A stretch of 64,000 nucleotides of DNA from Calditrichia bacterium (GTDB lineage Bacteria; Calditrichota; Calditrichia; JAJRVZ01). The position numbers were made by a program, and so were the translations under genes. Location of the stretch: contig CAVZSQ010000013.1 in NCBI GenBank assembly GCA_963777955.1, forward strand, positions 480,001 to 544,000, written 5' to 3'. The stretch's first letter is position 1, and each line of letters starts with the position of its first letter. This document shows, one piece after another, positions 1,147 to 37,580 of the stretch. The notes under the pieces were generated by a model. The model was not told the DNA's origin and did no database searches. It saw only the letters and a program-made list of their open reading frames with translations.

Positions 1147-1184
1147 AAAAAAAATCCCAAATTATTTTACAACAATTTGGGATT
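1147..1184 (-). terminator. Rho-independent terminator ending the minus-strand operon
   Basis: Stem AATCCCAAATT (1153-1163) / AATTTGGGATT (1174-1184), followed on the minus strand by a T8 run, ~20 nt after the DUF456 stop codon. Confidence 0.8.
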
Positions 1185-1205
1185 CCATAGTTGGCCTGTC
1201 TATAA

Positions 1206-1709
1206 TTAATAGATTGTATACCCGATCATAATCAGCATGGTGACCGCAGCGCAGGTCTTGACCGACAATCCCCCGATTTTACCGATGAACGAACCGATTC
1301 CGGAGTTCAGTGCTGCGCGCAAATTATAGGACTTGAAGAATTCCAGCAAGGTGCCCCCTAAAAAGACTCCCAGCACAGACCCGATTATGGCACCGATGAC
1401 CGGGGTGACAAAGGCGCCGCTGATGGCTCCGGCTATTCCCCCGATAATGCTGCCGCTGATGCCCCACTTGGATGCGCCGTATCTCCTGGCTGCTACAATG
1501 ATCAGAAAATATTCTAAAGACTCGGAAATCAATACTATCAGAAAGAGGGTTAATACAAATGTGAAGGTAAAACTATTGAAACTCGTGATCAGACCATAAA
1601 CCAGTGAATCCAGGGCTATCAGTAAATTACCAGGCAGACCGAAAAAATTCGAAAAGAATGAACCCAGTACTGCGGTTAAAAAAACAATTTCAACGATCAG
1701 ATCCAACAT
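1206..1709 (-). CDS. DUF456 (YqgC-like) membrane protein
   Basis: 167 aa, hydrophobic. Motifs GLPGN and ARRYGASKWG...GSIIGGIAG...PVIGAIIG are characteristic of DUF456. Confidence 0.8.
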   Translation of the reverse strand: MLDLIVEIVFLTAVLGSFFSNFFGLPGNLLIALDSLVYGLITSFNSFTFTFVLTLFLIVLISESLEYFLIIVAARRYGASKWGISGSIIGGIAGAISGAFVTPVIGAIIGSVLGVFLGGTLLEFFKSYNLRAALNSGIGSFIGKIGGLSVKTCAAVTMLIMIGYTIY

Positions 1710-1721
1710 CGGCTGCTACAC

Positions 1722-2447
1722 CTATTTGTTTGAACCAGAGGCAAAGGCATAACGACGGGTTTTACTGTTTAATCCCAGTCTTTGCAATTCACCCCGCACC
1801 ATCAGCCAGCCAACCTTCATAAAACCATAATCTATGGTATTCAGTTGCTTCTTTATTTTATAGGCTCCGTATTCCGGATTTTTTCTGACAATCATCTTTA
1901 TTTTTTCTATTAACGATAAATCAGCAGTGGCCATTTCACCTCTTTCGATAATTGTCTCCGTTACTCCGGTCGCAGCCGCTGTTTTAGAAGCACCTGTTCC
2001 CGTAGCAGCAGTTGCTGCCGTCTCTTTACCGGCAACCACTTCCGGCTTCTTGAAACTGACTTCTTTGGCTACAGGTTTGCCCGCCGATTCCAAAACTTCG
2101 AACTTGTTGATAGCTTCGTCAACTGTGTCGTATACATCCAGAATATGATGGAATTCCAGCAACTCAAATATTTCATATACATCCGGTACCATTCGTACTA
2201 ATTTCAGATCTCCACCATTTTCCCTGATGGATTTAATTTCACTGATAAAGATACCCCAGCCCGCGCTGCTGATATAATCCACATTTCCCAGATCCACCAC
2301 AATAAAGAATCGCCCCTGTTTTAATAAAGAATCTAAAGCTCGCTCCAATTCTGAAGACGTAGTGGTATCAATGTAGCCACCCACTTTAATTATTGAAATC
2401 TGATTTCTGCTCCCGGCAACTTCTGCTGATACCTGAATGCCTTCCAT
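1722..2447 (-). CDS. STAS anti-sigma-factor antagonist (RsbV/SpoIIAA-like) with Ala/Thr linker and C-terminal HTH-like domain
   Basis: N-terminal STAS with GYID...VDLGNVDYISSAGWG (phospho-acceptor Ser motif), low-complexity linker and a ~55-aa C-terminal helical domain. GGAGG RBS upstream. Confidence 0.85.
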   Translation of the reverse strand: MEGIQVSAEVAGSRNQISIIKVGGYIDTTTSSELERALDSLLKQGRFFIVVDLGNVDYISSAGWGIFISEIKSIRENGGDLKLVRMVPDVYEIFELLEFHHILDVYDTVDEAINKFEVLESAGKPVAKEVSFKKPEVVAGKETAATAATGTGASKTAAATGVTETIIERGEMATADLSLIEKIKMIVRKNPEYGAYKIKKQLNTIDYGFMKVGWLMVRGELQRLGLNSKTRRYAFASGSNK

Positions 2448-2477
2448 TCAACTCCTCCTTAATCTGATTGGGACAAT

Positions 2478-5400
2478 CTAACCTTGGTTAGATTTCGATA
2501 GTAAATCGAGTATTGCCTTGTTCTTCAATAAATTTTTATTGGCAATTTTTTTACGTACTGCATCCAGATCAGATTGACCAGCTGAAACATCTTTGCTCGC
2601 CTTTTCTCTGATCTGCAGATTTTTTATCCCGACTTCGTTAATCTGTTCTAGTATTGTATTCAATAATATATTTTCTTTTTTTATGTATATCAACACTTCT
2701 TTAGCATTTTCAATAACAAACTGTTCTTCCAACTCCGCACTGTTCTCTGACAAAAATTCAATTACACTGATGACCTGGGTGAACAGTTGCCTTACATTCA
2801 GCATATCTTTTAAAAGATGGTGGGTGGATATAATTTTCAGGGATAGTACAATTTTTATAAAATCTTCCTTCTTAAAATTTCCGTCCGTCCAGTTTAAAAC
2901 GACATCATCGATTAATTTTAAATCATCCTGTATCGTATCGTAAAAAGTATCCAGTTTTTCCGGAGTGATTAGCTGAACAGGTGCAGCCAGCGTGGGCACT
3001 GTTTCTGCTTTCGGTTCTTCCGGAAGCGCCTGGAAAACATTTATCGGTACTGCCACCGAAGGTATTTTAGGCGGTGGAGTTGTTTCGACTTTGGATTCAA
3101 TACTCGCTTCCTTAACCGGTGCTGCAGGCGCTTTGAGTTTGCGGAGCCGCGGCGGAGTTATTTTAGCCTCTTTCGGCTTGTAAGTTTCTGTCTTGGTTTT
3201 AAAGTCAATCCTTGGTTCAGGAAGTTTTTCCTTGACCGGCGGTTTTTCGCTGACTGGTTGAATTGCATCTGCCGCAGGTATGCCCGCCTCAGCTGTTGCC
3301 GGTTCTTCAATTCTCTTTGAAACTAATTGTTTATCAGCAAACCTTTTTTCTGATTCCAGCGGCGGGGGCGGCATGAATTCAGCCGGTGCTTTGGTCCCGC
3401 GTTTTTCCGAAATAACTTTTTCTGCCGATTCATAATTCAGGATGACCTGGCCATCCAGGGTTAACAACGGTGTTCCGGGCAGTTTGATCCGCTTACGGCC
3501 GCCCCGCTTGATAAACGCTTCACGTTTTTCGGCAGTGGTCAGACGGGCATGTTTGAGTTCTTCGTAAATACGACGGGGTTCCAACAATGTAAAACTATAC
3601 TTTTCGGTATTCAATTCATCACTGATCCGCTTGGGCCCAAATTCAGGATTATTGCGTACTACTTCAAATAACTTGGTTTTATCTTCAATACTGATATGTT
3701 TTTTCTCGATATAATCTGTCTCATATAAAGCTTCCTTCAGTCCTTCCCAGCCAACTTCTTCTTTAATACGCTTGTACTTGCGGTACATATAAGGGGATAC
3801 CAGCATCTGCTCGCAGGCTTCTTTTACCGGAACCTTGACCTCTTCAATCAACCGGAACAGTTCCTTTTGAATGGCATATATGACTTCACCCTGCATTAAC
3901 TTTTCTTTGATCGCTACAAAAGTGATGTCATCGTTCTGAGGATATCCCTGGGTATGGTGTTTGATGTCGTCTTTCACCCGCTGGATGAATTCCGATACAT
4001 CATAGTTGGAAAACCGGCGAATTACATCCAGAAAGCGTTCTTCCCGGTATAATTCACGCTTGGGATTCATGGCTTCGGTAACACCATCGGTGTACAGAAC
4101 CAGCAGATCATCTTCCCGTAAACGTATTGTATCTGCCTGTATTTTCTGATCAAACAGGGTCAGATCCGGTAATTGAATACCTACCGGAAATCCGGATGGA
4201 TTTAAATAATAGGTCTGCTTGGTGCTGCCGCGATATAAGATCATCGGATTGTGGCCGGCACTGGCATAATGAATAATACGGTTACGGCTGTCCAGCACCA
4301 GATAAAACATGGTCACGAACATACCCCGCTTCATGTCATCGGTCACGAAACGGTTGACCTTGCTCAGTACATCGGCCGGATTTTTATTGCCGCGTGCTTC
4401 CAGACGCAGAGCAGTACGGATCATGGTCATGATCAACGATCCCGGTACGCCCTTTCCGGCCACATCGGCTACGCAGATACCGATCGTATCATTATCGACT
4501 TCCACGAAGTCGAACAGGTCTCCGCCCACTTCTTTGGCCGCTTCATAATAGGAGGCCAGTTCATACCCTTTTACCTGCGGGAAGTCGCTGGGCAATAACA
4601 TCTGCTGAATTTCCTGGGCAACCTGTAATTCTTTTTGCAGACGCTGCTGCTCGATCAGGTTAACCTGGGCCTCGCGGAACTTATTGGTCATCAGGTTAAA
4701 GGCCTGGGCAATTTCACCCAATTCGTCGGAAGCATCGATATCAATTTCGTCCTCATCGATGGTACCCTGGCCGACTTCCTTGACCCAATCAGCAAGGGAA
4801 TGGAAGGGGGTAACAATGCGGTCGATCAGAAAATAACTGCCTACATAACTGATTAAAAGAATTATTATAAGGTAAATGATCAGATTGGTTTTACTCTGAC
4901 TGGCCCGTGATTGGATATAATCGTCCGGGATCCAGATATGTGCCCAGCCGATTAATTCCCCCTGGCCGCGCAAACCGGTATGGATTTCGGCGGCAAAATC
5001 ATATAAGGTCAGAGTATCCTCAGCGGTATATTTATATACGCTCAGGTAGCGCAGAGTATCTCCGGTATCCACCACAGACTTCTTTTCGGGATAGTTATAA
5101 ATCCCCTGTGATTTTAGCGGTGTACTGCCGCTGACGATCTCCCGGGCCGAGTCGACAATGAATGTCTCATAAATCAGATCAGGATTATTTTTTTTGAGTG
5201 AATGAGCAAGGGAAAACAGATCCAGATACTGGTCTTTTTGTAAATATTCGGAACTATTATCGGCCAGCGAGAGGGACTGCACTTTGATGGTCTGGATTGC
5301 CTCATTCAGATTAGTTTCATCAACCTGAAAATACAATAATGAAAAGATGACTAAAGCTAAAAAGGTAATTATCACCGAAGCTGTAATGGTATGCCGTGTG

Positions 5401-5873
5401 CGCAGGGTCAGATCTTCCCAAAGGGCTTGCGGTTTGGTCTGCGGTATGACTTCACGCTGTTTGGTCAGACGTAATTCGTTGCCGCGGCTGGTAATATTGT
5501 ACTGGACATCATCCATCAACTTGCGCATCATGAAAATGCCCAGTCCACCCTTTTTACCGATCTGGATATATTTTTCCAGGTCCGGCGTGGAAGCCTGCCG
5601 CGGATCGTAACTGATACCCTGGTCGACGACAACGATGGTCAAACTCTGCCGGCGGACAATCGCCTTGATGGTGATCTCGCCGCCCTTGATATCACGGTAG
5701 CCATGGCGGATAATGTTCGTACAGGCTTCTTCGATAACCAGTTTGAAGGAGTTGATCAGGCGGTCTTCATATCTGTACTTTTTGCCGATGTGATCGATAA
5801 AATCCCTTACCTGGCCCAGATAACTCATCTGTGCCGGTATGGCGATCAATTCCTTTCTGACATTTCGAAACAT
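2478..5873 (-). CDS. Membrane-bound partner-switching sensor: RsbW-like Ser kinase (HATPase_c_2) - TM - periplasmic domain - TM - HAMP - SpoIIE/PP2C phosphatase - tandem HTH - Pro-rich linker - helical bundle
   Basis: Kinase motifs EEACTNIIRHGY, VDQGISYDP, GGLGIFMMRKLMD. Two TM segments. HAMP DELGEIAQAFNLM. PP2C motifs EVGGDLFD, ADVAGKG, SAGHNP, LYTDGVTEA, DDIT. Confidence 0.9.
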   Translation of the reverse strand: MFRNVRKELIAIPAQMSYLGQVRDFIDHIGKKYRYEDRLINSFKLVIEEACTNIIRHGYRDIKGGEITIKAIVRRQSLTIVVVDQGISYDPRQASTPDLEKYIQIGKKGGLGIFMMRKLMDDVQYNITSRGNELRLTKQREVIPQTKPQALWEDLTLRTRHTITASVIITFLALVIFSLLYFQVDETNLNEAIQTIKVQSLSLADNSSEYLQKDQYLDLFSLAHSLKKNNPDLIYETFIVDSAREIVSGSTPLKSQGIYNYPEKKSVVDTGDTLRYLSVYKYTAEDTLTLYDFAAEIHTGLRGQGELIGWAHIWIPDDYIQSRASQSKTNLIIYLIIILLISYVGSYFLIDRIVTPFHSLADWVKEVGQGTIDEDEIDIDASDELGEIAQAFNLMTNKFREAQVNLIEQQRLQKELQVAQEIQQMLLPSDFPQVKGYELASYYEAAKEVGGDLFDFVEVDNDTIGICVADVAGKGVPGSLIMTMIRTALRLEARGNKNPADVLSKVNRFVTDDMKRGMFVTMFYLVLDSRNRIIHYASAGHNPMILYRGSTKQTYYLNPSGFPVGIQLPDLTLFDQKIQADTIRLREDDLLVLYTDGVTEAMNPKRELYREERFLDVIRRFSNYDVSEFIQRVKDDIKHHTQGYPQNDDITFVAIKEKLMQGEVIYAIQKELFRLIEEVKVPVKEACEQMLVSPYMYRKYKRIKEEVGWEGLKEALYETDYIEKKHISIEDKTKLFEVVRNNPEFGPKRISDELNTEKYSFTLLEPRRIYEELKHARLTTAEKREAFIKRGGRKRIKLPGTPLLTLDGQVILNYESAEKVISEKRGTKAPAEFMPPPPLESEKRFADKQLVSKRIEEPATAEAGIPAADAIQPVSEKPPVKEKLPEPRIDFKTKTETYKPKEAKITPPRLRKLKAPAAPVKEASIESKVETTPPPKIPSVAVPINVFQALPEEPKAETVPTLAAPVQLITPEKLDTFYDTIQDDLKLIDDVVLNWTDGNFKKEDFIKIVLSLKIISTHHLLKDMLNVRQLFTQVISVIEFLSENSAELEEQFVIENAKEVLIYIKKENILLNTILEQINEVGIKNLQIREKASKDVSAGQSDLDAVRKKIANKNLLKNKAILDLLSKSNQG

Positions 5874-5882
5874 TTAATTGTC

Positions 5883-7783
5883 CTATTTATTTTGGCTGCG
5901 TTTCAGACGATCTTCCGCACCGCTGATCGCTTCCAGTACTTTTTTATTATAGGGGTGCTGTTTTAATATTTCCTGCCAGATCTCGATGGCTTCATTATAT
6001 CGTCCTAATAAAAACTTGTCCACCCCTTCCAGATAGCGGCGTTCGGCTTCCGGTTCCATTTTTTCCGTTTCGGCCAGTGCTTCAATCTTGGATTTGGTAT
6101 AATACTGGCGGATAAACTGATTGCCCGGATCCTGCGACAATACGTCCTCAAATATTTTCAAGGCGTCTTCGTATTGCCCGATATCAAATAACATCAAACC
6201 TTTCTGGATATTTTCCTGTAATTTAACTCTTTCAACTAATGTGTCAACCTCTTTTTTCACCTGCGAGTCATCGCTGCTGAGCAGGCGGGCTTCAGACAGC
6301 AGGCGCAGTGCTTCCGAATAATTTTCCTTCTCGAATTCCTGACGGGCCCGCAAGACCAGGGCATTGATATCCTCCCTCATCCGGCGCTGGGTGGTATTGA
6401 TCGCATCCCTGATCGGCTTATTCTCAGGATCACGTTCCAGCGCCTGATTAAAAGCAATTAAAGCCTCGGTGTACTGTTTTTTATCTAAGTATAATCGGCC
6501 TTTCTGGTACTGATCTTCAATAAATTTTTTATCAACTTCGGCGCGATTTTTATCGATGGCCGCTAAGATGGCCTGGTTCTGCCGATCGTCAATTTCCCGG
6601 CTCAATAAGACATTGGCCGAATCAAGCATGATCCTGGCTTGTTGATGGAAAGGCTCCTGGTTGATCACCTCGCGGTATTCAACCACGGCATCAAGATACT
6701 TCTTTTCCCTGAAATATGCATCTGCTTTCTGTAAATGGTCGGCAATGGATTTTTGTTTATCCGCTTCGCGAATTTCAGTAATGATGCGCTCCTCCTCCAA
6801 CCGTCTTCAATTCCTGTACGATGGCAAACATTTCATCGCGATTCATGCCAAAATTGGCCGTGAGTGAAATCCGGTGAATGGAAGACAACATGCCTTCGCT
6901 ACTGGGATTACCAAAGGCATAATCGATCTGGAACATACTGTATTGCACCCCGGCACCAAAAGCGATACCATTATTGCTATAACCTAACCGGACCCTGCCC
7001 ATATCCATAAAACTGTATTCAGTTCCAAAACCTACAGCCATGTCGGTATCCACGCTTTTGTCCAGATCCAGCAGTACATTCAGCGAATTACCTTCACCAA
7101 AAAAGGGGATCTTACGGGCATATACCAAAACGGAATACCAGCGGCAGAACATCAGCTGAACCACCTTCGCCCACCTGTGGCGGAAATAGATTTTCCAGAT
7201 TGAGACCTAACGACCAGTCACGCATATACGGGGAGAGACTGAAAGTCGGCCGGTACATTAATCCTAAATCCATGCCCACACCAACGCCTACTGTCTTGCC
7301 ATAACCGGTCAGACCGGGCCAGGCCGAGCGGTTTACTTTGACGGATAAACCGCCTGCCAGATCCCAGGGAAGTTTCAGACCATATGAAAAATACACCTGA
7401 TATCTTTCCCGCGAAAAGGTAGCCAGATCCTCAAAATTTCGATTGGTTTGGGGAATATCCCCAATTCCTATCCGTGCAATACCTATGGCGAAGGTACCCA
7501 GATCCAGGGTTGGATAGGCATATCCTAGAAAGTCATAAGAGGCACCTTCGTACAGGGAAGCATGAAATAAGGTCACGCTCTGCTGGTAGATGTAATCCAG
7601 ACCGGCCGGATTCCAATAAACAGCAGTGGGATCATCGGCCAGTGCTGTAAAGGCATTGCCCATGCCCATGGCCCGGGCCCCAAAGCCAAAATCAAACAAA
7701 CTGCGCGTGCCGGCCTGCCCATTTCCATCCTGGGCCATCAATATGCCGGGCAAGAATATCAGAAGTAATAAAAATTTCTTCAT
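5883..7783 (-). CDS. PorV/PorQ-like outer-membrane beta-barrel fused to C-terminal TPR domain (reconstructed across two frameshifts, ~7115 and ~6800)
   Basis: Signal peptide MKKFLLLL and GARAMGMGNAFTALADDPTAVYWNPAGL (PorV/FadL-like N-terminus). Barrel continues in ORF 6775-7164 to HRISLTANFG. Removing one base gives VQELKRLEEERII, continuing into TPR ORF 5883-6800. Confidence 0.7.
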
Positions 7784-7835
7784 AGGCATACCCTGTATAT
7801 ACTTATAACTTTTAATTCTCATCTCGACAACTCAC

Positions 7836-10800
7836 TTATTTTAGATAAGCAATTTTTGTGATATAGGTCTGTGTCGCTCCACCGCCGACAGGTTTGATTT
7901 GCAACTGACACAGATATACATCATTAAGCACCGTTTTCCCGCGGTCATTTTTACCATCCCACTTGATATCATCATATGATCCACGAGATCTTCTATCCTT
8001 TTTCGTCCAGACCAATCCTCCGGTCAGAGTAAAGATACGTATTTCAATAGTCGGAATCCTGCTCCAGATATACCAGGATTATGGTTTCGTCTTCATTCCG
8101 GCCAAATGGATTAGGATAATTCCGGAATGCTTCTTTGGAATTATGGGGTACACGACTAATCACCCCCGATCTGCCACCCATCGCTTTGAGGCACTCTTCC
8201 ATCTGGACCCGCCACATCCAAGGACCATATGCGGGATTTACATCATAGGCATAAATATCGAGCAGTACACATCTGAAACTGCGATTGGTAGCGTCTAGAT
8301 TTAAATTTAGCCAGTACTATCACTGTATCCTCTAGTACCTGCAGCCATGACTGAATCACTCCGGTGAATGGGAAGGAATAATGGATTCCCACGTACTCAT
8401 TAGTAATGTCAAGCGAACCAAATTCTATTGCGTCCTTGGCCAGAGCCTGTAATTCATGGTAACGATCCAGATTAACCAGCGTCAAGGATTCAAACATATT
8501 GACCAAAGTTGAAGTCATCAACGTATCGTCACTGCTGGCACCAATAAAAGACAAGTTTTAAATTCTTAAGGGTCACATCATTCTGCAGCCCCGCTAAATC
8601 CAGCATTCGAAATTTCAAAAGCCAATAAGGGTGCATTATCGTCACCGCGTCTGGAACATTTGATTTTCGATCAGGGAATCGGTCAGATTGGTAACTATTA
8701 TACTTCTTTTTCTCAGTGCTGATTGAGAATGACCTGCTGCTGTTACTTGCATCAACATATGCAGGATCGCCACTGTTACGGTCATCCGGTACACCCGGAT
8801 CAGGGTAAAAGTTATAGTTTTGGCAAATACCGTGGTGTCTGGCGCCAGAACACTCCAGATTACCAGGGTATCATCAATGGCAAAGGTGCGAATACTAGTC
8901 TGGTGGTGTTAAAGTAAATATATCCGGCCGTGAGATCTTTACCTGGCATAGACCGGTAACATCAGCCATACCAGTAATACCGTTAAGATCCCTTTCTACC
9001 TTGGTACGGAATTCAATTGTCTGGCCCACTGAAACCAGGCCGTTCTTTGCGGTTTCCGGTGAACTAATTTCTGCCGTCAACATAACCCGGGCGTACGGCT
9101 GCACCAGAATAGAATCATTAACCGTCTGACTTTCTATCTCAGTTCCACTGTTATTATCTGTTACCCAGGCTGTTAGACTAAATCTTTGCATAATTGCACT
9201 GAGCAGAGTTTTTTCACTCCTGATATTCCAGGTGATTACCTTTGTATCCGGAATATATTGCACCGGATTGCTAACAATGAGTCCCGTACCAGGAGGCAAT
9301 GATATTACAGCACGCATATTTGTTACATTGGCGCTGAAATCGAAATAGCGGGTGTAGGTAAAAGTCTGCCCTGCCGATACAGTATCCGCAGGATTGCCGC
9401 CGAGAATTGATATTTCAGCTATGGTTTCCGTGGTAACCGGGATTAATACCTGCCGTACCGCAGCATTGGCCGGCCGCAAGGTATTTTCATCCAGCGGGGT
9501 TGTATCGATCCGGATAGCAATCGATCCGGCTCCCGTTGTCTCAGCCTGTTGTTTCAACGCAACCGAAAGTTCGTTCAGCAATCTCTGCTGTTCCGCTGCC
9601 GCTACGCTGTTCTGCTGGCCATAAGCGCTTCTGGAACTGGTGGCTCCAAGTTTGGACAGTATTTCACTGATCGGCGAGGCAGCATTTTTATTTATGGTAG
9701 TGGTATTGGCATCGATCCACCAGCTGACCGTATCACCGACTGTATAGGTTTTCTGAACAGCATTATCCGTACAACTGCTGCAAAGGCTGAACAGAGAATC
9801 ATCAACTTGTACTGAGATCAAACCCTGGCTGCCGGGAACAATATTGGCCGTACCGGCTCGACTGATATTAGCCCGGATCCTGAACTGCTGACCTTCGGAA
9901 ACACTGCCATCTCTTGCACCAACCGGTTCTACAATAGCCGCTGTAAATACAATACTGGCCTTGGTTATAGTTTGAATGGCCAGCGTGGCATTCGTACTGA
10001 CCGGTGTCAGATTTGCATCGGCATTGAAATTCGCTGAGGCCAACAGGTTCAGCACTGACCAGTCGCTGGCATCTTTCGGAGCCCGGATATACCAGGACAA
10101 ATCATAAACACTCTGCTGAACGTTCAGGAGCTGGCGAATTAAACTGCTATCCTGCGTGGAATAACCTTCTCCGACCGGCAATTGCAGTTTAACCTGGCGG
10201 TTATGGTCAAGCAAGGGATGAAAAGTCACCCGGGCATCTATCCGGATGGAATCCTGATCGGTCGAGACAGTAACACTGTCATTCGTAACGGGACTGCTGA
10301 ACTGTATGGAATTTATTACAATGGAGGCCTGGATCGCATTCACCAGTAACTGGCTGCCGAATGAGTTGATCACGGCATCCTGACCGGTGTTCTGGTCAAC
10401 AGGATAAATCAACTGTGATATCATCAGGGTATCATTAATACCAGCCGTCTGTGCCAGCGATTGTACCAGCCAGCTGACCGAGCGATTGCTAAATGTATAA
10501 GAAGTGTCGGCGGCGGATAAGATCTGGTAATTGGCGGGAACATTCAGGCGTAATAATCCCGGACTAAATGTTGCCGTGCCGCTACTGGTGACATTTAATC
10601 GTACATAGAACCGCTGTCCAACCGCCACGGTCGAATTTGTATCCCCGCTCAGCGTGGTGACTGTACTGCTCAAAGTCAGCACCGCCGGCATATCGGCATG
10701 AACCTGCGCGGTATTTTGAAGTCGGTTGCCCTATACTGATCGGTTGGCCGGTGGTGGCATCAATCGCTGAAACAATTCTGGCCAGGTAAGTATAATCACC

Positions 10801-19800: not shown

Positions 19801-22800
19801 AAAGATCATAACCGACCGCATACAATGTTAAAGTCTGATCCGTGGTCAGTGTCGTGTCATCAAACGCCTGACCTGCCGTGCGTATTGTCTGTATTTTTAA
19901 TTCTGCCAATGTCCCGCTAGTAATTGTAATAGTACCTGTTGAATCAGGAGTTACACCGCCAATAGAACTGGTGGCGATGATCCGCCCGGCATCGGGTGCG
20001 ATACTCGGAGAAAAGACATAAGAACTTCCGGAACCTGAAACTGAATTGGCTAATCCGATCTCCGACCAATTGACTGTAACATTGCCCGTGTAATTTGCAT
20101 ACTGGTCGTATCCCGCTGCATAGAATACAATTGAACTTGTGACAGTAATGGTTGAATCAGCAAATTCTACTCCCTGATTATTATTTGCTGTTCGTATGCG
20201 CACATAATCAAGACTATTGGACGTAATCGTGATTAGCCCGCTCACCCCCTGCTTGGCGTGATCTGACTGGCTCCAGCCGGTCAGCGTAAAACTCTCCGCG
20301 GTATTGTCATATACCTGAAACGTCGCTACTCCCGCCGTTAAACTCTGACTCGCCGGCGTCTCTATAACATTGGCACTGCTGCCGATTAATTCCACCACCG
20401 TGCTGTTATCGCTGCTTACTAAATTGTTATTGCCGTCATAGGCACGGACCACTACGTTTATATTCACCCCGGCCAGCGCACTGTATACCGCCGGCGTCAC
20501 CGTGTAGTACGATATGCCTCCCGCTGTTCCCGTCACCGTGAACACTATACTATCCGCAGGACTGCTCACTATCACCGCCGCCACCAGGTTCGCACCCGCT
20601 ACCGCTCCGGTCGTTAACGTCGCCTCCGCTATGCCATTGGCACCGCTGCTTACCGTGCGCACTCCCAAACCACCTAAATTTCCGCCGCCGCTTATTACCC
20701 GGTATCTGATACTCTCATTATTCACTACATTACCATACGCATCCGTCACCAATGAACGCAGTAACTGATCCGTTCCTGCCACCACGCTCACTCCGCTACC
20801 GCTCGATACCGACAGGTTCGTCGCCGCATTCGAACTGACCGTCACTACCCCGCTAACCCCCTGCTTGGCGTGATCTGACTGGCTCCAGCCGGTCAGCGTA
20901 AAACTCTCCGCGGTATTGTCATATACCTGAAACGTCGCTACTCCCGCCGTTAAACTCTGACTCGCCGGCGTCTCTATAACATTGGCACTGCTGCCGATTA
21001 ATTCCACCACCGTGCTGTTATCGCTGCTTACTAAATTGTTATTGCCGTCATAGGCACGGACCACTACGTTTATATTCACCCCGGCCAGAGCACTGTATAC
21101 CGCCGGCGTCACCGTGTAGTACGATATGCCTCCCGCTGTTCCCGTCACCGTGAACACTATACTATCCGCAGGACTGCTCACTATCACCGCCGCCACCAGG
21201 TTCGCACCCGCTACCGCTCCGGTCGTTAACGTCGCCTCCGCTATGCCATTGGCACCGCTGCTCACCGTGCGCACTCCCAAACCACCTAAATTTCCGCCGC
21301 CGCTTATTACCCGGTATCTGATACTCTCATTATTCACTACATTACCATACGCATCCGTCACCAATGAACGCAGTAACTGATCCGTTCCTGCCACCACGCT
21401 CACTCCGCTACCGCTCGATACCGACAGGTTCGTCGCCGCATTCGAACTGACCGTCACTACCCCGCTAACCCCCTGCTTGGCGTGATCTGACTGGCTCCAG
21501 CCGGTCAGCGTAAAACTCTCCGCGGTATTGTCATATACCTGAAACGTCGCTACTCCCGCCGTTAAACTCTGACTCGCCGGCGTCTCTATAACATTGGCAC
21601 TGCTGCCGATTAATTCCACCACCGTGCTGTTATCGCTGCTTACTAAATTGTTATTGCCGTCATAGGCACGGACCACTACGTTTATATTCACCCCGGCCAG
21701 CGCACTGTATACCGCCGGCGTCACCGTGTAGTACGATATGCCTCCCGCTGTTCCCGTCACCGTGAACACTATACTATCCGCAGGACTGCTCACTATCACC
21801 GCCGCCACCAGGTTCGCACCCGCTACCGCTCCGGTCGTTAACGTCGCCTCCGCTATGCCATTGGCACCGCTGCTCACCGTGCGCACTCCCAAACCACCTA
21901 AATTTCCGCCGCCGCTTATTACCCGGTATCTGATACTCTCATTATTCACTACATTACCATACGCATCCGTCACCAATGAACGCAGTAACTGATCCGTTCC
22001 CGCCACCACGCTCACTCCGCTACCGCTCGATACCGACAGGTTCGTCGCCGCATTCGAACTGACCGTCACTACCCCGCTAACCCCCTGCTTGGCGTGATCT
22101 GACTGGCTCCAGCCGGTCAGCGTAAAACTCTCCGCTGTATTGTCATATACCTGAAACGTCGCTACTCCCGCCGTTAAACTCTGACTCGCCGGCGTCTCTA
22201 TAACATTCGCACTGCTGCCGATTAATTCCACCACCGTGCTGTTATCGCTGCTCACTAAATTGTTATTGCCGTCATAGGCACGTACCACTACGTTTATATT
22301 CACCCCGGCCAGCGCACTGTATACCGCCGGCGTCACCGTGTAGTACGATATGCCTCCCGCTGTTCCCGTCACCGTGAACACTATACTATCCGCAGGACTG
22401 CTCACTATCACCGCCGCCACCAGGTTCGCACCCGCTACCGCTCCGGTCGTTAACGTCGCCTCCGCTATGCCATTGGCACCGCTGCTCACCGTGCGCACTC
22501 CCAAACCACCTAAATTTCCGCCGCCGCTTATTACCCGGTATCTGATACTCTCATTATTCACTACATTACCATACGCATCCGTCACCAATGAACGCAGTAA
22601 CTGATCCGTTCCTGCCACCACGCTCACTCCGCTACCGCTCGATACCGACAGGTTCGTCGCCGCATTCGAACTGACCGTCACTACCCCGCTAACCCCCTGC
22701 TTGGCGTGATCTGACTGGCTCCAGCCGGTCAGCGTAAAACTCTCCGCGGTATTGTCATATACCTGAAACGTCGCTACTCCCGCCGTTAAACTCTGACTCG

Positions 22801-25340
22801 CCGGCGTCTCTATAACATTCGCACTGCTGCCGATTAATTCCACCACCGTGCTGTTATCGCTGCTCACTAAATTGTTATTGCCGTCATAGGCACGTACCAC
22901 TACGTTTATATTCACCCCGGCCAGCGCACTGTATACCGCCGGCGTCACCGTGTAGTACGATATGCCTCCCGCTGTTCCCGTCACCGTGAACACTATACTA
23001 TCCGCAGGACTGCTCACTATCACCGCCGCCACCAGGTTCGCACCCGCTACCGCTCCGGTCGTTAACGTCGCCTCCGCTATGCCATTGGCACCGCTGCTCA
23101 CCGTGCGCACTCCCAAACCACCTAAATTTCCGCCGCCGCTTATTACCCGGTATCTGATACTCTCATTATTCACTACATTACCATACGCATCCGTCACCAA
23201 TGAACGCAGTAACTGATCCGTTCCGGCCACCACGCTCACTCCGCTACCGCTCGATACCGACAGGTTCGTCGCCGCATTCGAACTGACCGTCACTACCCCG
23301 CTAACCCCCTGCTTGGCGTGATCTGACTGGCTCCAGCCGGTCAGCGTAAAACTCTCCGCGGTATTGTCATATACCTGAAACGTCGCTACTCCCGCCGTTA
23401 AACTCTGACTCGCCGGCGTCTCTATAACATTGGCACTGCTGCCGATTAATTCCACCACCGTGCTGTTATCGCTGCTCACTAAATTGTTATTGCCGTCATA
23501 GGCACGTACCACTACGTTTATATTCACCCCGGCCAGCGCACTGTATACCGCCGGCGTCACCGTGTAGTACGATATGCCTCCCGGTATCCCCGTTATCGTA
23601 AAACGAAATGAGTCAGACGGGCTGCTGACCAGGATAGCGGTAACCTGGTTCGTACCGGCCGTGGAGCCGGTAGTGAATGTCGCTTCTGCCAAACCATTGA
23701 CATTGGTGATCTTAAAAACGTTGGATGCTCCCTCCAGGTTTCCATTCCCGCTGCGTACAATGAAATTGACAGTTTGGCTGCTTTTAGCGTTACCGAAAGT
23801 ATCCGTAACGGCGACCCGTAAAAGTTGATTTGTACCTGCAATGACAGAACCATTACCGCTCTGGTACAAAAGGGTATCAGCGCCGCCGGCAGCGACTGTT
23901 ACCAGCGCGCTGGTTCCGCTGACCGAGGTATTATATTTACTGCGGGCTGTAAAAGTAAGATTTTCCGCTGCAGAATCTGCAAAAGTAAAACTGGCTACTC
24001 CTGCGCTAAGATTATCTTCCGTCGCACTGAGACGTACGCGGGATCCGGTAGTTAAAAATTCAACGGTTGTGGTATCATCCCAGCTGACCAGGTTATCTCC
24101 GGCATCATAGGCACTGACCGTGACAGACACATTTGTTCCCGCTGTTGTACTCAGCACCGCCGGGACAACAGTATAATAAGCGATCAACTCCGGTAAAACG
24201 GTTACGCTGTATCCGCCATTAGTAGTGTTGACCGCAGAACTGGTACCGATAGCAGCGTCGATAGTGGATGTGAAATTACCTGAGCCGGTCTGCGCTGAAC
24301 CATTTTCCAGAAAAGTAACTACCACGGAATCTTTGATAGCAAAATATGATGTCTTAATTACCAGACTATCACCGGTGGGATAGTACCACCACGAGGCAAA
24401 TTGCGGCGCGGTCGGCCGGCTTTGACTGCGTTGAATAAAATAACTGGAACCGTCAATATTAACGGATACTACAGAAATGGATTCATCCGTAAAAGGGTTG
24501 TTAATCACCACATGATCGGCTTTACCCATATTCGAAGTCGAGGAAGAAATACTGGTAATTCTGTATACATATTCATTGGAAGATGATGCCCGCAGTACCG
24601 TATCCGGGTTTATACTCGCTGTCGCGGAATTTACATCGTCGCCATACCAGATGATAGACATGGAATCCAGAACAGCCGGTGTGTCATTATTGGCGAATTG
24701 CAGACCTATCGTACCATCACTGTTTTCTGTTCCAATCGTGGCTGCCCCGAGTGAATCGTCCATTGCGGCCAGATAGTTGAAAACAAATTCATTGGTGGAT
24801 TCAGATAAAATTATTTGAAAATAATATGAACCGGCCTGAGTGATGTCAACACAGAAGTCGTTCCATTGAACGATAAACTTGCGGTAAGGAGCAGTACCGA
24901 TCGTTTGATAATAAACGTCAGAAAACGCAGTCTCCGCTGCGGAATCTTATTGCACTCCAGCCAGCTGCCATGATATTATTAGGTACATTAACATTTGGAA
25001 CGCCGTCATCATTCTGGTCCTCATAACTGGTGGCGATAGAAGTGAAATCGATGAATCCACCTGTACTGATCCACACCTGAGAATAATCTGTGCCATAATA
25101 ATTAAAGTTAAAACCGATCGATATGGGGCCCCTGAAGTCATCCGAGACTACAAAATCTGCCTGTGATCCCGCCAGCACATCTTGCCAGGTGAAAGGTATT
25201 GTAGCACCACTGGCCAGCGAGGTTTTCCAGCGGTAACCATAACTATCCGGGCCTCCGCTGGGCGATGTAGCCAGTTGGGCAATTGCAGCAGTACTGAGTG
25301 AAAGTACTATCAGAATTGATAATATCTTCGCAAGTTTCAT
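7836..25340 (-). CDS. Giant (~5,800 aa) secreted Ig-like repeat surface protein/adhesin with C-terminal FlgD-Ig/T9SS-type sorting domain (reconstructed across several frameshifts)
   Basis: Sec signal MKLAKILSIL...AIA and GGPDSYGY/nidogen-like N-domain continuing across ~24930 (VYYQTIGTAPYRKFIVQW). ORFs 18821-24763, 10582-18789, 8895-10691 and 8243-8554 are consecutive pieces; the junctions I checked (~24930, ~18820, ~10700) read through on a shifted frame. C-terminus reads FRNYPNPF...IEIRIFTLTGGLVW...KWDGKNDRG...KIAYLK-stop (stop at 7836). Confidence 0.75.
20237..23583 (-). repeat. Intragenic tandem array: ~5.5 near-identical copies of a 612-bp (204-aa, two Ig-like/Big_1 domains) unit
   Basis: Exact 612-bp period, also shown by identical antisense ORFs at 20514, 21126, 21738, 22350 and 22962. 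A diverged extra unit lies at ~23584-24190. Confidence 0.97.
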
Positions 25341-25352
25341 AGTTATATCTCA

Positions 25353-25877
25353 CTACTTGTTAAGCGTTATTATATTTCCCCTGCCGGTCACGGTTGCTGC
25401 AAAAACGCCATTGGGCAGCAGGGTTTCGACCATAACCGAATTTTGCTGGTTTGCTTCGGAAATTTGTTTTTCATTTAAATTCAACTGTATTTCCAGCGTC
25501 AGAGCATAAGGATCTGTATAGACAAAAGGATATACCCGCAGGGTGCCGGTGGAGTCCGTATAATTCCAGGCCAGCACATTATCGCGGGCAGCATTTTCCA
25601 TCGACTGGATCAGCCAGAGTGCCTCTCCGGATTTTTCCGCGTAGAGCAGGGTAAGTTTCCCCGGAATACCTTCCAACCGTATATCGATATTTTCTACAGT
25701 GGTTACGCCGGTGGTATTAATACGCAGGCGTAATGATTGCGGTTCTGGATTGGACTGGAGATCTGTAGTCAGAACTTCATATTCAACCAGAGCTGTGGAC
25801 GGAATCTGATTTTGTGCAGGTAGGACATTGTATAAAAACAAAAAAATTATCCCTACGAATAATACTCTGGACGACAT
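25353..25877 (-). CDS. Secreted hypothetical protein, first gene of the giant-protein operon
   Basis: 174 aa with N-terminal signal-like segment and beta-rich body. GGAG RBS, and the stop is 12 nt before the giant gene start. Confidence 0.65.
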   Translation of the reverse strand: MSSRVLFVGIIFLFLYNVLPAQNQIPSTALVEYEVLTTDLQSNPEPQSLRLRINTTGVTTVENIDIRLEGIPGKLTLLYAEKSGEALWLIQSMENAARDNVLAWNYTDSTGTLRVYPFVYTDPYALTLEIQLNLNEKQISEANQQNSVMVETLLPNGVFAATVTGRGNIITLNK

Positions 25878-26091
25878 TATGTTGTACTCCTTATTTTTAT
25901 AAAAAATACAATACTTGATAAAGCAATTTTACATATTCGTGTCATCGTAGTGGTGATAAAAAGCACATTTCACAGTCAGGATTATTTACTGAGATTCGGC
26001 ATTGTTTTCATTAAGTTTAACGAATATTTCACTTAAAAAACAGAAGCGAAAGAAAAAACCACCTTTTTACAGGTTTTTAGGAGGGTGATGT

Positions 26092-27240
26092 TTATTTTAA
26101 TATGGCACGGAGCAGGATCAGGAATTCTTTCCCGTCATTTTCAACCAGTTTTTTATTTTTTATAGCTTTATCAAAATCAGGATTGATTTCCAGTGCCCGG
26201 TTAAATTCATTCAGCGCCTGCAGAAACAGATTCCGGCATTGAATAAGATGGACTACCCCCAGATTATTCCACAGATCGGCATATTCGGCATTCTGCTCGA
26301 TGGCGGATTTCAAGCGGTACTCGTAACGCTTAATAGTTTCCATATCGAGTCCCTTACCGCCGTACATAAATTTTAAATAAAAATTGGTAGAAATAAGATT
26401 GCTGACATCTTTCAGGAAAATTCTTTTGCGGTTTTCTTCCAGTAACTGAATAATCTGTTCGACTTTATTCTGATTGACCAGTTTCAGGGCTTTATCATAA
26501 ACCACATCGAATATTTTTATATTTTTATCCTTTAACTGATCAAGATGCTCCATCGCCCGTTGAATACGGATGGAAGGGGGGGGCAGAAAATGGTTATCAT
26601 TGGAGTTTAAAGTACTGCGCAGATACAGCGAGGCAATATTATAATGTGCCTCCAGATAATTTTTATTCTGTTTGATCGCTTTCTTGAACTCGCGCAGAGC
26701 CGCCTCATACTGATTATCCATCATCAGGGCAAACCCGTAATTATTCAACATATCCGTGAAATGTTCCCCTTTCAGCATACCCTGGCGCAGGATCTCTACA
26801 GCCTTGGTATGATTTCCTGACTGAGTATAAGCCTGGCCGAGGTTATTATATCCCTCCAGGTTATGCGGATTGATTTCAATAGCCAGTTGAAAATGCTTGA
26901 TGGCATCTTCGGCCAGATTATTCTGCAGGAATAAAATCCCGATTTTATTGTGTGAACTGCAATGCCTGATCTGCATAACTTTTTCTGAAATTTTGAACAA
27001 GAGATCAACTTCATTGATCATCTCATTATGCATCGATTCGACAATAACTTTCAGGCGGTCTTCCACCGAATCACGGCGATCACCTTTACGTCTTTCAAAA
27101 TCTACCGTGGTAGCCGTAATTACACGTCCGTCTTCATACACTTCACAACGGATTTTCCCCTTGCTGGAGTTGGTGGAAGTTTGAAAGTGGAATTTTCGTC
27201 CGAACACTTCCAGATTATCATTAAATCCTATCTCTGACAT
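26092..27240 (-). CDS. Cytoplasmic TPR-repeat protein with uncharacterised N-terminal domain
   Basis: 382 aa with multiple TPR motifs (EGYNNLGQAY, EAHYNIASLY, ADLWNNLGVVH, ALEINPDF) and no signal peptide. Confidence 0.8.
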   Translation of the reverse strand: MSEIGFNDNLEVFGRKFHFQTSTNSSKGKIRCEVYEDGRVITATTVDFERRKGDRRDSVEDRLKVIVESMHNEMINEVDLLFKISEKVMQIRHCSSHNKIGILFLQNNLAEDAIKHFQLAIEINPHNLEGYNNLGQAYTQSGNHTKAVEILRQGMLKGEHFTDMLNNYGFALMMDNQYEAALREFKKAIKQNKNYLEAHYNIASLYLRSTLNSNDNHFLPPPSIRIQRAMEHLDQLKDKNIKIFDVVYDKALKLVNQNKVEQIIQLLEENRKRIFLKDVSNLISTNFYLKFMYGGKGLDMETIKRYEYRLKSAIEQNAEYADLWNNLGVVHLIQCRNLFLQALNEFNRALEINPDFDKAIKNKKLVENDGKEFLILLRAILK

Positions 27241-27303
27241 GCTCTGTTATCCTAAAATTCGAATTTGAACCTTTTATGGTATACGGATACTATTTATGAT
27301 TCC

Positions 27304-28971
27304 CTACTGGGTTATCACTCGGGTAATTTCTTTCTGCAAGTCAACATCCCGACGGGCCGAATTCAGATACAAGCGCATTTGATTGCGGCCCATATTCTTG
27401 GCTTCATACAGAGCCTGATCGGCGCGCTGAATCAATTCATCCGGATTACGGGCGTCATCCGGAAAAGTCGCACCGCCCAGGCTGACGGTCAGTTTACCAT
27501 CAGGTTGTACTCGTTCTTTATAAAACACATGACTTTCAATTTTCTGTCGCAGACGTTCGCCCAGAATCTCCATGCTGCTTTTCGAGATCCCCGGCAGGAT
27601 AATGCAGAATTCTTCCCCGCCGTACCGGGAGACAATATCTTCATCACGTACGGCTGCTTTTAAAACTTTACCCAGGCTGCGCAGGGCCTCATCTCCGGCC
27701 TGGTGTCCCAGGGTATCATTATAATTTTTAAAATGATCAATATCAATAATCAGCAGGGACACCTTGGATTTATTACGGCGACCCCGGTTTAATTCTTCCT
27801 TTAAGCGGATCGAGAAATAACGGTAATTATGCAAATTAGTCATCGCATCGGTCAGGGATAAGTTTTTAACTTCTTCATAATGCAGGGCATTCTCGATCGA
27901 GATGGAAATAATGTTTATCAGTACATGAAATAATTCGTAATCACTCTGGGAAAATGAATGCCCGTATAATTTCTCACCGATTCCGATAATCCCCTGCAGA
28001 CGTCCCTGGATAAGGATAGGAGCAATCAGGTATAAACCAATTCTTTTAAGTTTTTTGGTATAGGCGTTCAGCACATATTCTTTTTCTAAATCTTCGACAA
28101 ACAGAGGGGTTCCCCTTTTTAGCAGATATTTGGCTATGGGTGTTTCAATCTTAAATTTAAGAATTTCCACATCCCGTTCTTTGAACCCTTTCTGAAAATT
28201 ATGACTGAAAGTATGCGTGCCGGCTTCATACATCAAGGCCAGCGCATTCTGGATACCCAGTTGGCCGATTATGGTCAGCAAGGCAGAGTTAATCAACTGT
28301 TTAAAATTTAAGATGGAATAGATCTCATTGCTGGCTTCGACCAGGTTGTGCAGATCATATACTTTTCGTTTTACTGCTTTTTCCGCAATCTGCAGCGAGT
28401 TTGCGCTCTCCAGCAGGGATTTATGCAGAATCGCGATTTGTTCCTTTAAACCTGCTCTGGCCACTGATTCCTGATGGGACTTGAGCAAACGGGAAATAAT
28501 GAGATAAAAAAGGTTATAATAATTCGCACGGTACTTTTTATTTGCAATTCTTAAAATATAATAAAATTCGTCCTGTAACTGAAAATAAAGAAATTCACTC
28601 TGGAACTCATTCTCCGGATTGGATTTTTCGGCTCCGTCATAAATACCCAGCTGATTCGTGAAAATATCATTAAAATGCCGGATAAAATAACCTGACTTTT
28701 TCAGATGCAGCGGTTTTTTCGCCAGCAGGTCCAGCCAATGCTCCGGAGTATCTTTGCGGACACCGTATAGATCAAGGCTGAGCGATGTGAATTTTGAAAT
28801 CTTTTCGAAGGCCCGGATCAGATGAATATTCAGATCAATGTTAGAGATCACATTTTGATCCGGCAGAGCCAGATAAGTATCGCTGAGAATAAAATCGTTA
28901 AATAGATGCGCCTGCTGATTCAGCAAGGGCAGGAAATCAAAACGTAGAATTTTTTTAAAAATACTTTTCAT
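27304..28971 (-). CDS. GAF-GGDEF diguanylate cyclase
   Basis: TDAMTNLHNYRY, DIDHFKNYNDTLGHQAGD, RxxD I-site (RDED) followed by RYGGEEF, ADQALYEAK..GRN. GAF-like segment upstream. Confidence 0.92.
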   Translation of the reverse strand: MKSIFKKILRFDFLPLLNQQAHLFNDFILSDTYLALPDQNVISNIDLNIHLIRAFEKISKFTSLSLDLYGVRKDTPEHWLDLLAKKPLHLKKSGYFIRHFNDIFTNQLGIYDGAEKSNPENEFQSEFLYFQLQDEFYYILRIANKKYRANYYNLFYLIISRLLKSHQESVARAGLKEQIAILHKSLLESANSLQIAEKAVKRKVYDLHNLVEASNEIYSILNFKQLINSALLTIIGQLGIQNALALMYEAGTHTFSHNFQKGFKERDVEILKFKIETPIAKYLLKRGTPLFVEDLEKEYVLNAYTKKLKRIGLYLIAPILIQGRLQGIIGIGEKLYGHSFSQSDYELFHVLINIISISIENALHYEEVKNLSLTDAMTNLHNYRYFSIRLKEELNRGRRNKSKVSLLIIDIDHFKNYNDTLGHQAGDEALRSLGKVLKAAVRDEDIVSRYGGEEFCIILPGISKSSMEILGERLRQKIESHVFYKERVQPDGKLTVSLGGATFPDDARNPDELIQRADQALYEAKNMGRNQMRLYLNSARRDVDLQKEITRVITQ

Positions 28972-29273: not shown

Positions 29274-30563
29274 TCAATTAAAAGTAACGTGGTATACCAC
29301 CGGGATTTCTTTTCTCAGTTTTTCCATCCATTTAACATATTCCAGTTCAATTTTATGATTAAGAGCAATTTGTTGTATTTGATCCCAATCGTTTTCCAGG
29401 GTGAGCTGCCGCGGTTCTTTCCGCCAGTTCAGCCTGAGGATATGATAACCGTAATCCGTTTTAAATGGCGTACTTACTTCGCCGGGGGTCAATTTATCTA
29501 TAATTTCCTTAAAAGCCGGGATTGCCAGTTTGTCAGTTTCCCAGTCACCCAGATTCCCTTTGTCTTTTTCAACATTCTCATCCTCTGAATACAGCACCGC
29601 CAGGCTATCAAAACTGGCACCGGCTAAAATTTCCTGCCGGAGCGTATTCAGGAAATCGACAACTTTTTGCGCATCTTCGACTCCCGGGCGAACCTGTAAC
29701 AGAATATGACTTGTACGGATTTGCTCACCGCGACGTTCATTCAGTTTGATAATATGAAATCCGAATTGAGTTTGTACGATATCGGATATCTGGCCGACGC
29801 TCAGGGCGAACGCTGCTTCTTCAAATTCTTTAACAAAATCACCCCGTTTGGTGAATCCCAGGTCTCCGTCTCTTTTCGCCGTGGCCGGATCTTCAGAATA
29901 TTCTTTGGCCAGTTCTGCGAAGTTACCCCCTTCGTCCAATTTTCTTTTAATCTCGCGCATTCTGACCAGCGCTGCCTGTGTGCTGCTTTCTCCCGGTTTA
30001 ACCTGCCTGAGAATATGGCTGATATTGACTGTTTCCTTCAGAACCGGCAGGCTGTCGCGATACGATTGATAAAATTTTTCTATTTCCCGGCGTGAAACCT
30101 TGACTTCCTGGAATTTCGTACGCCGCAGCATTTCGATTTTCATGCGCTCAATGGTTTCCTTGCGCAAATCCTTGCGGATCTTGCGCATGGGACTTTGAAA
30201 AGATTCTTCTAATTTACCTTCGGAACCGACCTGCTGGATCAGATAAGCGATATGTTCCTCAACCCTCTTGTCAACATCCCGGTCATCCACTTTAACAGTA
30301 TCTTCGTCTGCTTTGGCCAGCATAATTTTTTGTTCGATCATTTTCTCCAATACCTGTTTTTGCAGATCCTGCAGGAGTTTTATATCGCCGCGAATGTTCA
30401 ACTTATTCTGCAGCGCATAATTCTGCACAAATTGTTCAATTTCCGATCTTAAAATTATCTCCTGGCCGACCGTAGCAGCGATCCCTTCGATCGTTTGCTG
30501 GGCCAAACCGCTGCTGCTGAATAACATAAGCAGACCGAGAAGCCTGTAGATTAGTCGTGTCAT
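29274..30563 (-). CDS. surA: SurA-like periplasmic chaperone/peptidyl-prolyl isomerase with two parvulin domains
   Basis: Signal peptide, SurA N-domain (IAATVGQEIILRSE) and two rotamase motifs (FAELAKEYSED...GDLG...TQFGFHII; FDSLAVLYSED...TDYGYHIL). Confidence 0.85.
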   Translation of the reverse strand: MTRLIYRLLGLLMLFSSSGLAQQTIEGIAATVGQEIILRSEIEQFVQNYALQNKLNIRGDIKLLQDLQKQVLEKMIEQKIMLAKADEDTVKVDDRDVDKRVEEHIAYLIQQVGSEGKLEESFQSPMRKIRKDLRKETIERMKIEMLRRTKFQEVKVSRREIEKFYQSYRDSLPVLKETVNISHILRQVKPGESSTQAALVRMREIKRKLDEGGNFAELAKEYSEDPATAKRDGDLGFTKRGDFVKEFEEAAFALSVGQISDIVQTQFGFHIIKLNERRGEQIRTSHILLQVRPGVEDAQKVVDFLNTLRQEILAGASFDSLAVLYSEDENVEKDKGNLGDWETDKLAIPAFKEIIDKLTPGEVSTPFKTDYGYHILRLNWRKEPRQLTLENDWDQIQQIALNHKIELEYVKWMEKLRKEIPVVYHVTFN

Positions 30564-30573
30564 GTTCGAATCA

Positions 30574-31443: not shown

Positions 31444-31452
31444 GTCGAACTT

Positions 31453-37419: not shown

Positions 37420-37580
37420 AATAACTGCTCGCTGTTAAGCACCGGCCAGGCCGGAAAATGCCTGTCGGCTGCGCCAATGATCTGCTTTCACTCTCAAAGC
37501 GACTTGACTTTTAATCTAAGAGAATTAAATTTAACGCATTATTTCTTCAGGTGCTAATCATTCTAATCAGGCAGGGGGGT

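Follow-up and report, generated by a model that had tools for sequence, protein, structure and literature searches.

The window analysed here is a 64,000-nt stretch of a Calditrichia bacterium genome (assembly GCA_963777955.1, contig CAVZSQ010000013.1, positions 480,001 to 544,000 of the forward strand). Its minus strand carries a cassette encoding a giant secreted protein, a PorV-family β-barrel with an arm of tetratricopeptide repeats (TPR; the barrel is termed PorV-TPR below), a membrane kinase/phosphatase sensor and a STAS protein, together with a cytoplasmic TPR protein. The cassette is real and is conserved in at least four phyla, and its stable gene linkage, together with its recurrence beside c-di-GMP and polysaccharide genes, makes it a likely undescribed control switch for surface attachment. 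We regard it as close to an even call, with doubt slightly ahead, that the cassette works as a sigma-independent partner switch, which would read the giant surface protein across the envelope and would coordinate adhesin and exopolysaccharide production. The genes concerned are the following.

27304..28971, minus strand: GAF-GGDEF diguanylate cyclase, 555 aa, accessory member (Pfam GGDEF 5e-50, GAF_2 4e-6)
26092..27240, minus strand: 382-aa cytoplasmic TPR protein, N-terminus RomY-like; fifth conserved member (NF053858 1e-7, below cut-off)
25353..25877, minus strand: secreted 174-aa protein of no known family (no Pfam/NCBIfam match)
7836..25340, minus strand: giant secreted protein, about 5,830 aa when read across the frameshifts of the assembly (domain searches)
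20522..23581, minus strand: five near-identical 612-nt (204-aa) repeats in the giant gene, likely a stalk (2-7 differences per 585 nt compared)
5883..7822, minus strand: PorV/PorQ-family β-barrel with a TPR arm of ~300 aa (NF033709 103.9 bits, cut-off 90)
2478..5873, minus strand: membrane sensor, 1131 aa (Pfam/NCBIfam searches)
1722..2447, minus strand: STAS protein with a helix-turn-helix (HTH) domain, Ser61 as predicted phospho-site (alignment and structure model)

Linkage of the cassette genes within and beyond the class

The class survey comprised 60 relatives, and each arrangement was counted where the contigs permitted the test. The PorV-TPR gene was directly upstream of the sensor gene in 51 of 52 loci (the sole exception, G036, is uninformative, with runs of N interrupting both genes), and the STAS gene was directly downstream of the sensor in all 56. 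The giant gene was upstream of PorV-TPR in 46 of 46 loci and within four genes downstream of the TPR gene in 35 of 36, and a cyclase gene preceded the TPR gene in 22 of 37. The sensor was present in 57 of the 60 relatives; neither a kinase nor a PorV-TPR match was obtained in G003, G009 and G030, which are 67-92% complete.

Beyond the class, a scan covering 5 of the 64 parts of the genome collection returned the cassette in records labelled KSB1, Zixiibacteriota, Latescibacterota, Krumholzibacteriia, Eisenbacteria and FCPU426, and in the phyla of three such loci that were sampled the sensor occurred in 40, 50 and 24 of 51 genomes. Twenty KSB1-, 20 Zixibacteria- and 16 Latescibacterota-phylum loci were examined, with counts made by eye from maps. 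PorV-TPR stood before the kinase in 20/20 KSB1- and 19/20 Zixibacteria-phylum loci, and the TPR gene was linked in 17/20 (KSB1, upstream of the giant gene), 18/20 (Zixibacteria) and 15/16 (Latescibacterota). In the Zixibacteria loci the cyclase followed the STAS gene within two genes in 15/20, with Wza in 16/20 and the TPR gene usually between the chain-length protein and the tyrosine autokinase. In 15 of the 16 Latescibacterota-phylum loci the sensor was fused to STAS domains, and a ParA-like ATPase, the TPR gene and two STAS genes came next. In loci L118-L120 and L250-L264 the sensors were 1,380-1,900 aa long and ended in fused STAS domains (three in L118-L120), and downstream lay a ParA-like ATPase, a TPR gene, two STAS genes and a ~720-aa gene without known identity.

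The prediction that the regulatory genes stay beside the giant protein and PorV-TPR in other genomes thus held in four phyla and was not refuted. On the linkage counts in the class and the three other phyla, the TPR protein is the fifth cassette member and the cyclase is a recurrent accessory.

The sensor domain was also compared with the gene in front of it. PorV-TPR or an arm-like gene lay directly upstream in 27 of 36 sensor-bearing PP2C loci, versus none of 31 other PP2C loci. In L143, L144, L148 and L149 the gene in front of the sensor encodes a secreted TPR protein that has a similar C-terminus but no barrel, and in L144, L148 and L149 STAS, kinase and cyclase genes follow. The proposed link to cyclic di-GMP (c-di-GMP) could not be kept as a fixed membership of the cyclase, but stands as a recurrent association, with the cyclase linked again in Zixibacteria and in these barrel-less loci.

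Gene layout, assembly state and component proteins

Open reading frame (ORF) and family searches of the window bore out the gene order, the shared minus strand and the domain calls of the preliminary description. Its tight spacing from 25877 to 1206 was likewise confirmed, with gaps of 12, 13 or 55 (two possible starts), 9, 30 and 12 nt, as was its single closing terminator, a strong hairpin with a U-run after the DUF456 gene. Of the eight genes it had listed, order and strand were right, but eight intact genes are not present, the giant and PorV-TPR genes being frameshifted in the assembly. Spanning 5,835 codons (25340-7836), the giant gene lies in about eight frame pieces and the PorV-TPR gene (7822-5883) in three, with two frameshifts. 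These breaks are likely assembly indels, because near-relative contigs from four short-read runs show differences of 1-2 bases at 6805, 7121, 8049-52, 8367, 8791-99 and 10720-23, because mfd, aconitase, SprA and PorU are also split in the source genome, and because sixteen relatives have a single full giant ORF of 3,534-6,092 aa. The short-read comparison covered 5900-11000 (5.1 kb; six breaks), and the breaks near 18850 and 24930 lie outside it. Within the window, mfd (33217-36533) and a homoaconitase-like gene (48025-49999) are each in two parts, a sign of indel errors.

The sensor consists of an RsbW-type Ser kinase (12-138), a transmembrane helix, a single Cache domain (~185-330), a second transmembrane helix, HAMP, PP2C (461-656), HTH (671-785) and a variable tail. 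The kinase matched HATPase_c_2 at 2e-27 with intact GHKL N, G1 and G2 boxes, and the phosphatase matched SpoIIE at 5e-50. Residues E49, N53, D84, G86 and G109-G112 of the kinase, as well as the metal-binding D452, D470, D596, D648 and D649 of the PP2C domain, were invariant in 39 sequences. The Cache domain was variable (mean column identity 21%); sCache_3_2 was matched in 32 of 70 homologs, and DcuS was the best match, at 7e-5. No REC domain was matched in the sensor, which has two transmembrane helices, Cache and HAMP instead. Its HTH is bipartite and resembles IS481/IS3 transposases, HTH families being matched in up to 52 of 71 homologs. A profile search gave about 100 clusters at 50% identity that cover most of the sensor.

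The STAS protein has a STAS domain that is near-invariant across the class, a flexible linker and a single HTH, the homologue of the sensor's second HTH; the HTH of both proteins was conserved in all class members aligned. Residues S60-S61-A62-G63 were invariant in 46 STAS sequences, and the spacing of Y58 and S61 equals that of F53 and S56 in SypA. The structure model (pLDDT 80.8) has the SpoIIAA fold (Z 17.7, rmsd 2.0, 116 aligned). A complex prediction for STAS and the TPR protein scored 0.30 against a mark of 0.32, gave no answer and was used neither way.

The giant protein begins with a signal peptide and a nidogen-like region (NIDO matches at the N-termini of 2 of 7 relatives), continues with Big_1/CARDB Ig domains and ends in a C-terminal domain (CTD) of the kind tied to type IX secretion systems (T9SS). 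This CTD was conserved in 43 sequences; the window piece matched the PorU tail at 7e-9, and TIGR04183 scored 31.9 bits (cut-off 23) in one of two intact relatives' giants scanned. The five 612-nt repeats likely form a stalk, and units of 202-207 aa were repeated in the giants of several relatives by k-mer count; Tandem Repeats Finder, run with a period limit of 500, did not detect the 612-nt unit. For the 174-aa secreted protein, besides the missing family match, all Atlas leads were under 0.9, and a signal-peptide gene of similar size is upstream-adjacent to the giant gene in relatives.

PorV-TPR is ~635 aa long where intact in relatives, and its TPR arm is predicted to be periplasmic from β-barrel topology. 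The source genome encodes SprA, PorU and many PorV-family proteins, and its other PorV-family barrels are without the arm; for the PorLM motor, GldM was not matched in it, but control genomes gave no match either. Its 23 PorV-family barrel starts include only 4 directly behind a CTD-ending ORF, and it has more than 100 CTD-like tails. A partial duplicate of the cassette (L100:5305-17444, contig C24) comprises a frameshifted giant gene, an intact 643-aa PorV-TPR gene and a 162-aa kinase-only gene.

In the window cyclase the GGEEF active site and the RxxD I-site are intact. GGEEF was kept in 18 of 22 class orthologs and the GGDEF motif was lost in 4. In one genus (L073, L093, L094, L072) the ortholog is without the motif and the HD-GYP gene is retained; this protein is possibly a c-di-GMP receptor. 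A GAF-HD-GYP gene follows the TPR gene in 18 of 36 class loci, the source genome not among them. The RomY model NF053858 scored 32.3 bits on the TPR protein against a cut-off of 50, roadblock genes are present but unlinked, and most class genomes have a second RomY-like TPR gene.

CRP-type box and the exopolysaccharide operon

Three further features bear on transcription of the locus.

25952..25967, minus strand: CRP-type palindrome TGTG-N7-TCAC, with a −10-like TAAAAT 20 nt on, at 25931-25926
1206..1709, minus strand: DUF456 membrane protein (Pfam)
1151..1186, minus strand: intrinsic-terminator-like hairpin (z −3.9, 0 of 200 shuffles as strong)

A gap of 214 nt separates the TPR gene from the secreted-protein gene, and since it holds a conserved promoter-like element, the cyclase and TPR genes probably form a transcript separate from the core operon. 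The palindrome TGTG-N7-TCAC was present in this gap in 32 of 36 loci (shuffles: mean 0.23, maximum 2), 20-22 nt before an AT-rich element across loci. It is the single match in the window, and seven control positions gave 0-2 hits; the pattern is post hoc, having been chosen after an excess of dyads was seen. CRP promoters carry a TGTGA-N6-TCACA-like site centred about 28-30 nt before the −10 element, and we take the consensus and spacing found here to fit a class II CRP promoter. The palindrome is likely the activator site of the core operon's own promoter.

A second STAS-HTH gene lies in the source genome between WcaJ and Wza; one was also found in 38 of the 60 relatives, and WcaJ is next to it in 23 of the 25 loci examined. 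Its operon (L103:11542-20000, contig C26) reads WcaJ, STAS-HTH paralog, Wza-like, AsnB, acyl-CoA ligase and chain-length protein; a REC-HD-GYP gene lies upstream. A matrix built from the core sites ranked the site before this operon joint second of 18 non-coding sites. The polysaccharide-operon box, with the 20-nt spacing of the core box, recurs in eight genomes, of which five belong to family f1, two to f7 and one to f2, and was not found in families f3, f4, f5 and f6. The source genome has two CRP-family genes; one CRP-family gene (L266:1054-1731, contig C15) is near an HD-GYP gene and porU. As a lead only, a GAF-GGDEF cyclase of Leptospira is described as activated by cAMP (PMC8846402).

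Other searches for regulatory elements gave little. The hairpin in the gap was no better than chance (z 0.09), hairpins after the TPR gene and after surA were not above shuffles, sigma-70 promoter scans stayed at chance level, and no conserved motif was found upstream of the TPR gene. The window had no Rfam match at the gathering threshold and thus no known c-di-GMP riboswitch.

DUF456 follows the STAS gene in 35 of 55 class loci and was seen in none of the loci examined in the three other phyla. It is probably outside the system though co-transcribed here, a neighbour instead of the system part it was first taken for. Beyond the terminator the window has a DUF5655 gene (18-935), as does G001; at this place nearly every other relative carries DUF4159 and DUF4175 genes. 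Genes for SurA and other PpiC-type chaperones (29274-32879) are found immediately upstream of the cyclase in families f1, f3, f5, f7 and f8, and a sigma-54 activator often lies in between. Elsewhere the window carries ordinary genes, namely a cluster for 2-oxoacid dehydrogenase (37551-43351), a CTD protein of type A (45011-46225) and a respiratory cluster resembling Qrc/alternative complex III (53018-60600).

Proposed mechanism, alternatives and known systems

Sequence and gene order establish the parts of the cassette, the integrity of their catalytic motifs, their linkage and the box; the scheme that follows is proposed. The giant protein would pass out through Sec and the SprA translocon, and a PorV-family barrel of its own would hold it; the TPR arm of this barrel would contact the Cache domain of the inner-membrane sensor in the periplasm. 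HAMP would toggle the sensor between kinase and phosphatase and so set the phosphorylation of STAS Ser61. STAS would then act on non-sigma partners; the likeliest are the RomY-like TPR protein, the machinery for polysaccharide export and, in loci that have one, the GAF-GGDEF cyclase. The HTH domains would be an optional DNA-binding branch. Transcription of the core operon, and in some families of the polysaccharide operon as well, would be activated by a CRP-family protein. The core linkage, the co-occurrence of sensor domain and TPR arm, the second giant, PorV-TPR and kinase copy, the links to matrix genes, the shared box, the presence of SprA, PorU and many PorV-family genes and the precedents of SypE/SypA and HsbR/HsbA/HsbD support this scheme. 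The contact between arm and Cache is suggested by their co-occurrence, the phosphorylation of Ser61 by the sensor is predicted, the barrel is a putative dedicated shuttle of the giant protein, and STAS may bind the cyclase or the TPR protein. A bolder version has the T9SS-type shuttle barrel double as a signalling receptor, with surface contact or adhesin export setting STAS phosphorylation and, through the RomY-like TPR adaptor, c-di-GMP synthesis and polysaccharide export; we hold it tentatively, as somewhat short of an even chance.

Several observations weigh against the partner-switch scheme. The other-phylum loci were chosen by best score and long contigs, with one or two possibly repeated, and genomes within one phylum are not independent. 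The cyclase, which the preliminary description had listed in the system, was missing before the TPR gene in 15 of 37 class loci, including all of families f2, f4 and f6; none was seen within 15-20 kb upstream in the 20 KSB1-phylum loci, and it was absent from the Latescibacterota-phylum stretches examined. In a quick tree the Calditrichota and Zixibacteria cyclases fell into separate clades, and their N-termini are unrelated, which weakly suggests that they were recruited separately. By scripted count, 9 of the 36 sensor-bearing loci had no arm gene directly upstream. Of the stretches upstream of the polysaccharide operon, only 5 of 23 short ones and 3 of 18 long ones contained the box (the long ones not above shuffles, maximum 4), and after the TPR gene it was found in 0 of 17 KSB1 loci. 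An adhesin function for the giant protein is suggested by a single feature, its Ig repeats, and single Cache domains usually bind small molecules, DcuS being the best match here.

This last point leads to the account in which the Cache domain senses a small molecule, while the giant protein and the barrel are co-transcribed outputs outside the signal path. Its DcuS-like, variable Cache domain would suit such a sensor, and SypA and SypE likewise sit in the locus that they control (PMC10120452). Against it, the last TPR repeat of the arm is retained next to the sensor where barrel and giant protein are missing, and the other PorV-family barrels of the source genome have no arm. We consider this account rather unlikely. 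Transcription as the main output, with the transposase-like HTHs of sensor and STAS binding DNA, possibly the palindrome, in place of a sigma factor, is improbable. The bipartite IS481/IS3-type HTH is kept throughout the class, and fold searches of the region gave TnsB, MuA, Tc3 and Pax DNA-binding domains as best matches; these matches are weak, however (E above 0.08, Z at most 6.4, none at E 0.001), and the palindrome matches the CRP consensus in a genome with two CRP-family genes. The HTH domains are in any case unlikely as the sole output: 10 of 20 Zixibacteria kinases have lost them, as have the free STAS genes in all 16 Latescibacterota-phylum loci.

Less probable again is a canonical anti-sigma system with its sigma factor encoded elsewhere. 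The RsbW-like kinase, the SpoIIAA-fold STAS domain and a FliA/WhiG sigma gene on another contig of the source genome are in its favour, and HsbA also controls sigma factors (PMC5085249). The locus itself has no sigma factor gene among the ORFs of 18-28971, in agreement with the preliminary description, none was seen among annotated neighbours in other phyla (many neighbours carry no annotation), and the recurring neighbours are instead TPR, cyclase and polysaccharide genes. Mere inheritance of neighbours without shared function could draw on the DUF4159/DUF4175 genes downstream and SurA upstream, which are also well kept within the class, but those neighbours change between phyla while the core is constant, and the TPR gene stays linked though it shifts from upstream to downstream. 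We consider this account very improbable.

The proposed partner switch can be set beside several systems. SypE of Vibrio fischeri joins an N-terminal Ser kinase and a C-terminal PP2C in one chain with a central REC switch (PMC10120452, PMC8256260), and its STAS partner SypA, encoded in the polysaccharide locus, is the downstream output, with a non-sigma target that is not known (PMC10120452). The cassette shares the single-chain kinase and PP2C, the STAS output and, through the second STAS-HTH gene, the link to polysaccharide genes; it differs in its TM-Cache-TM-HAMP region (TM, transmembrane helix) in place of REC, the added HTHs and the T9SS-type cargo and barrel neighbours. HsbR/HsbA/HsbD of Pseudomonas aeruginosa likewise combines a bifunctional kinase/phosphatase, a STAS switch and a neighbouring lineage-specific diguanylate cyclase, which binds the phosphorylated STAS protein (PMC5085249), whereas HsbR, a response regulator, is soluble and takes its input from HptB, HsbA also binds FlgM, and the locus as described there is without surface protein or barrel (PMC5085249). 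SypE/SypA is among the analogues named previously; the closest one with a cyclase is HsbR-HsbA-HsbD, which had not been named. The cassette may work like both but is a member of neither, since it has no REC and has on its input side a Cache sensor in the membrane, encoded next to a secretion barrel.

SiaABCD of P. aeruginosa comprises a PP2C phosphatase, a separate kinase, a STAS-like switch with target Thr68 and a diguanylate cyclase controlling aggregation (PMC7647112). Loci L144, L148 and L149 show its four-gene order, whereas the kinase is fused in the cassette, and SiaA (64.5 against 700) and SiaD (152 against 290) scored far below cut-off. T9SS shuttles pair type B CTDs with PorP/SprF and type A CTDs with PorV, and the system is described as confined to Bacteroidota (PMC12618676). 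As in such pairs, the barrel is encoded directly behind a large CTD-tailed surface protein, but it is of the PorV/PorQ family with a 300-aa TPR arm, type A-like models give the best scores for the CTD, and the host does not belong to Bacteroidota. RomY of Myxococcus xanthus, 188 aa long, stimulates the MglB GAP (PMC9481161); the TPR protein weakly matches its ~80-aa N-terminal domain, adds ~300 aa of TPR and does not neighbour mglAB. Our literature search, with subscription journals and supplements outside it, found neither a description of the cassette nor a paper joining Calditrichota and type IX secretion.

The attachment decisions of sediment bacteria in Calditrichota, KSB1 and Zixibacteria are unstudied, and the target of a sigma-independent STAS protein such as SypA is an open question. 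The cassette is nearly universal in the class and offers candidate targets, namely the TPR adaptor, the cyclase and the polysaccharide co-polymerase, as well as a candidate input, the arm of the secretion barrel, and each of its parts is amenable to expression and assay in the form of soluble domains. It ties T9SS-type cargo/shuttle pairs outside Bacteroidota to signalling. If the barrel is indeed a receptor, the cassette would be a trans-envelope surface-sensing pathway unlike the two-component, TonB/ECF or Rcs routes, and common to at least four phyla.

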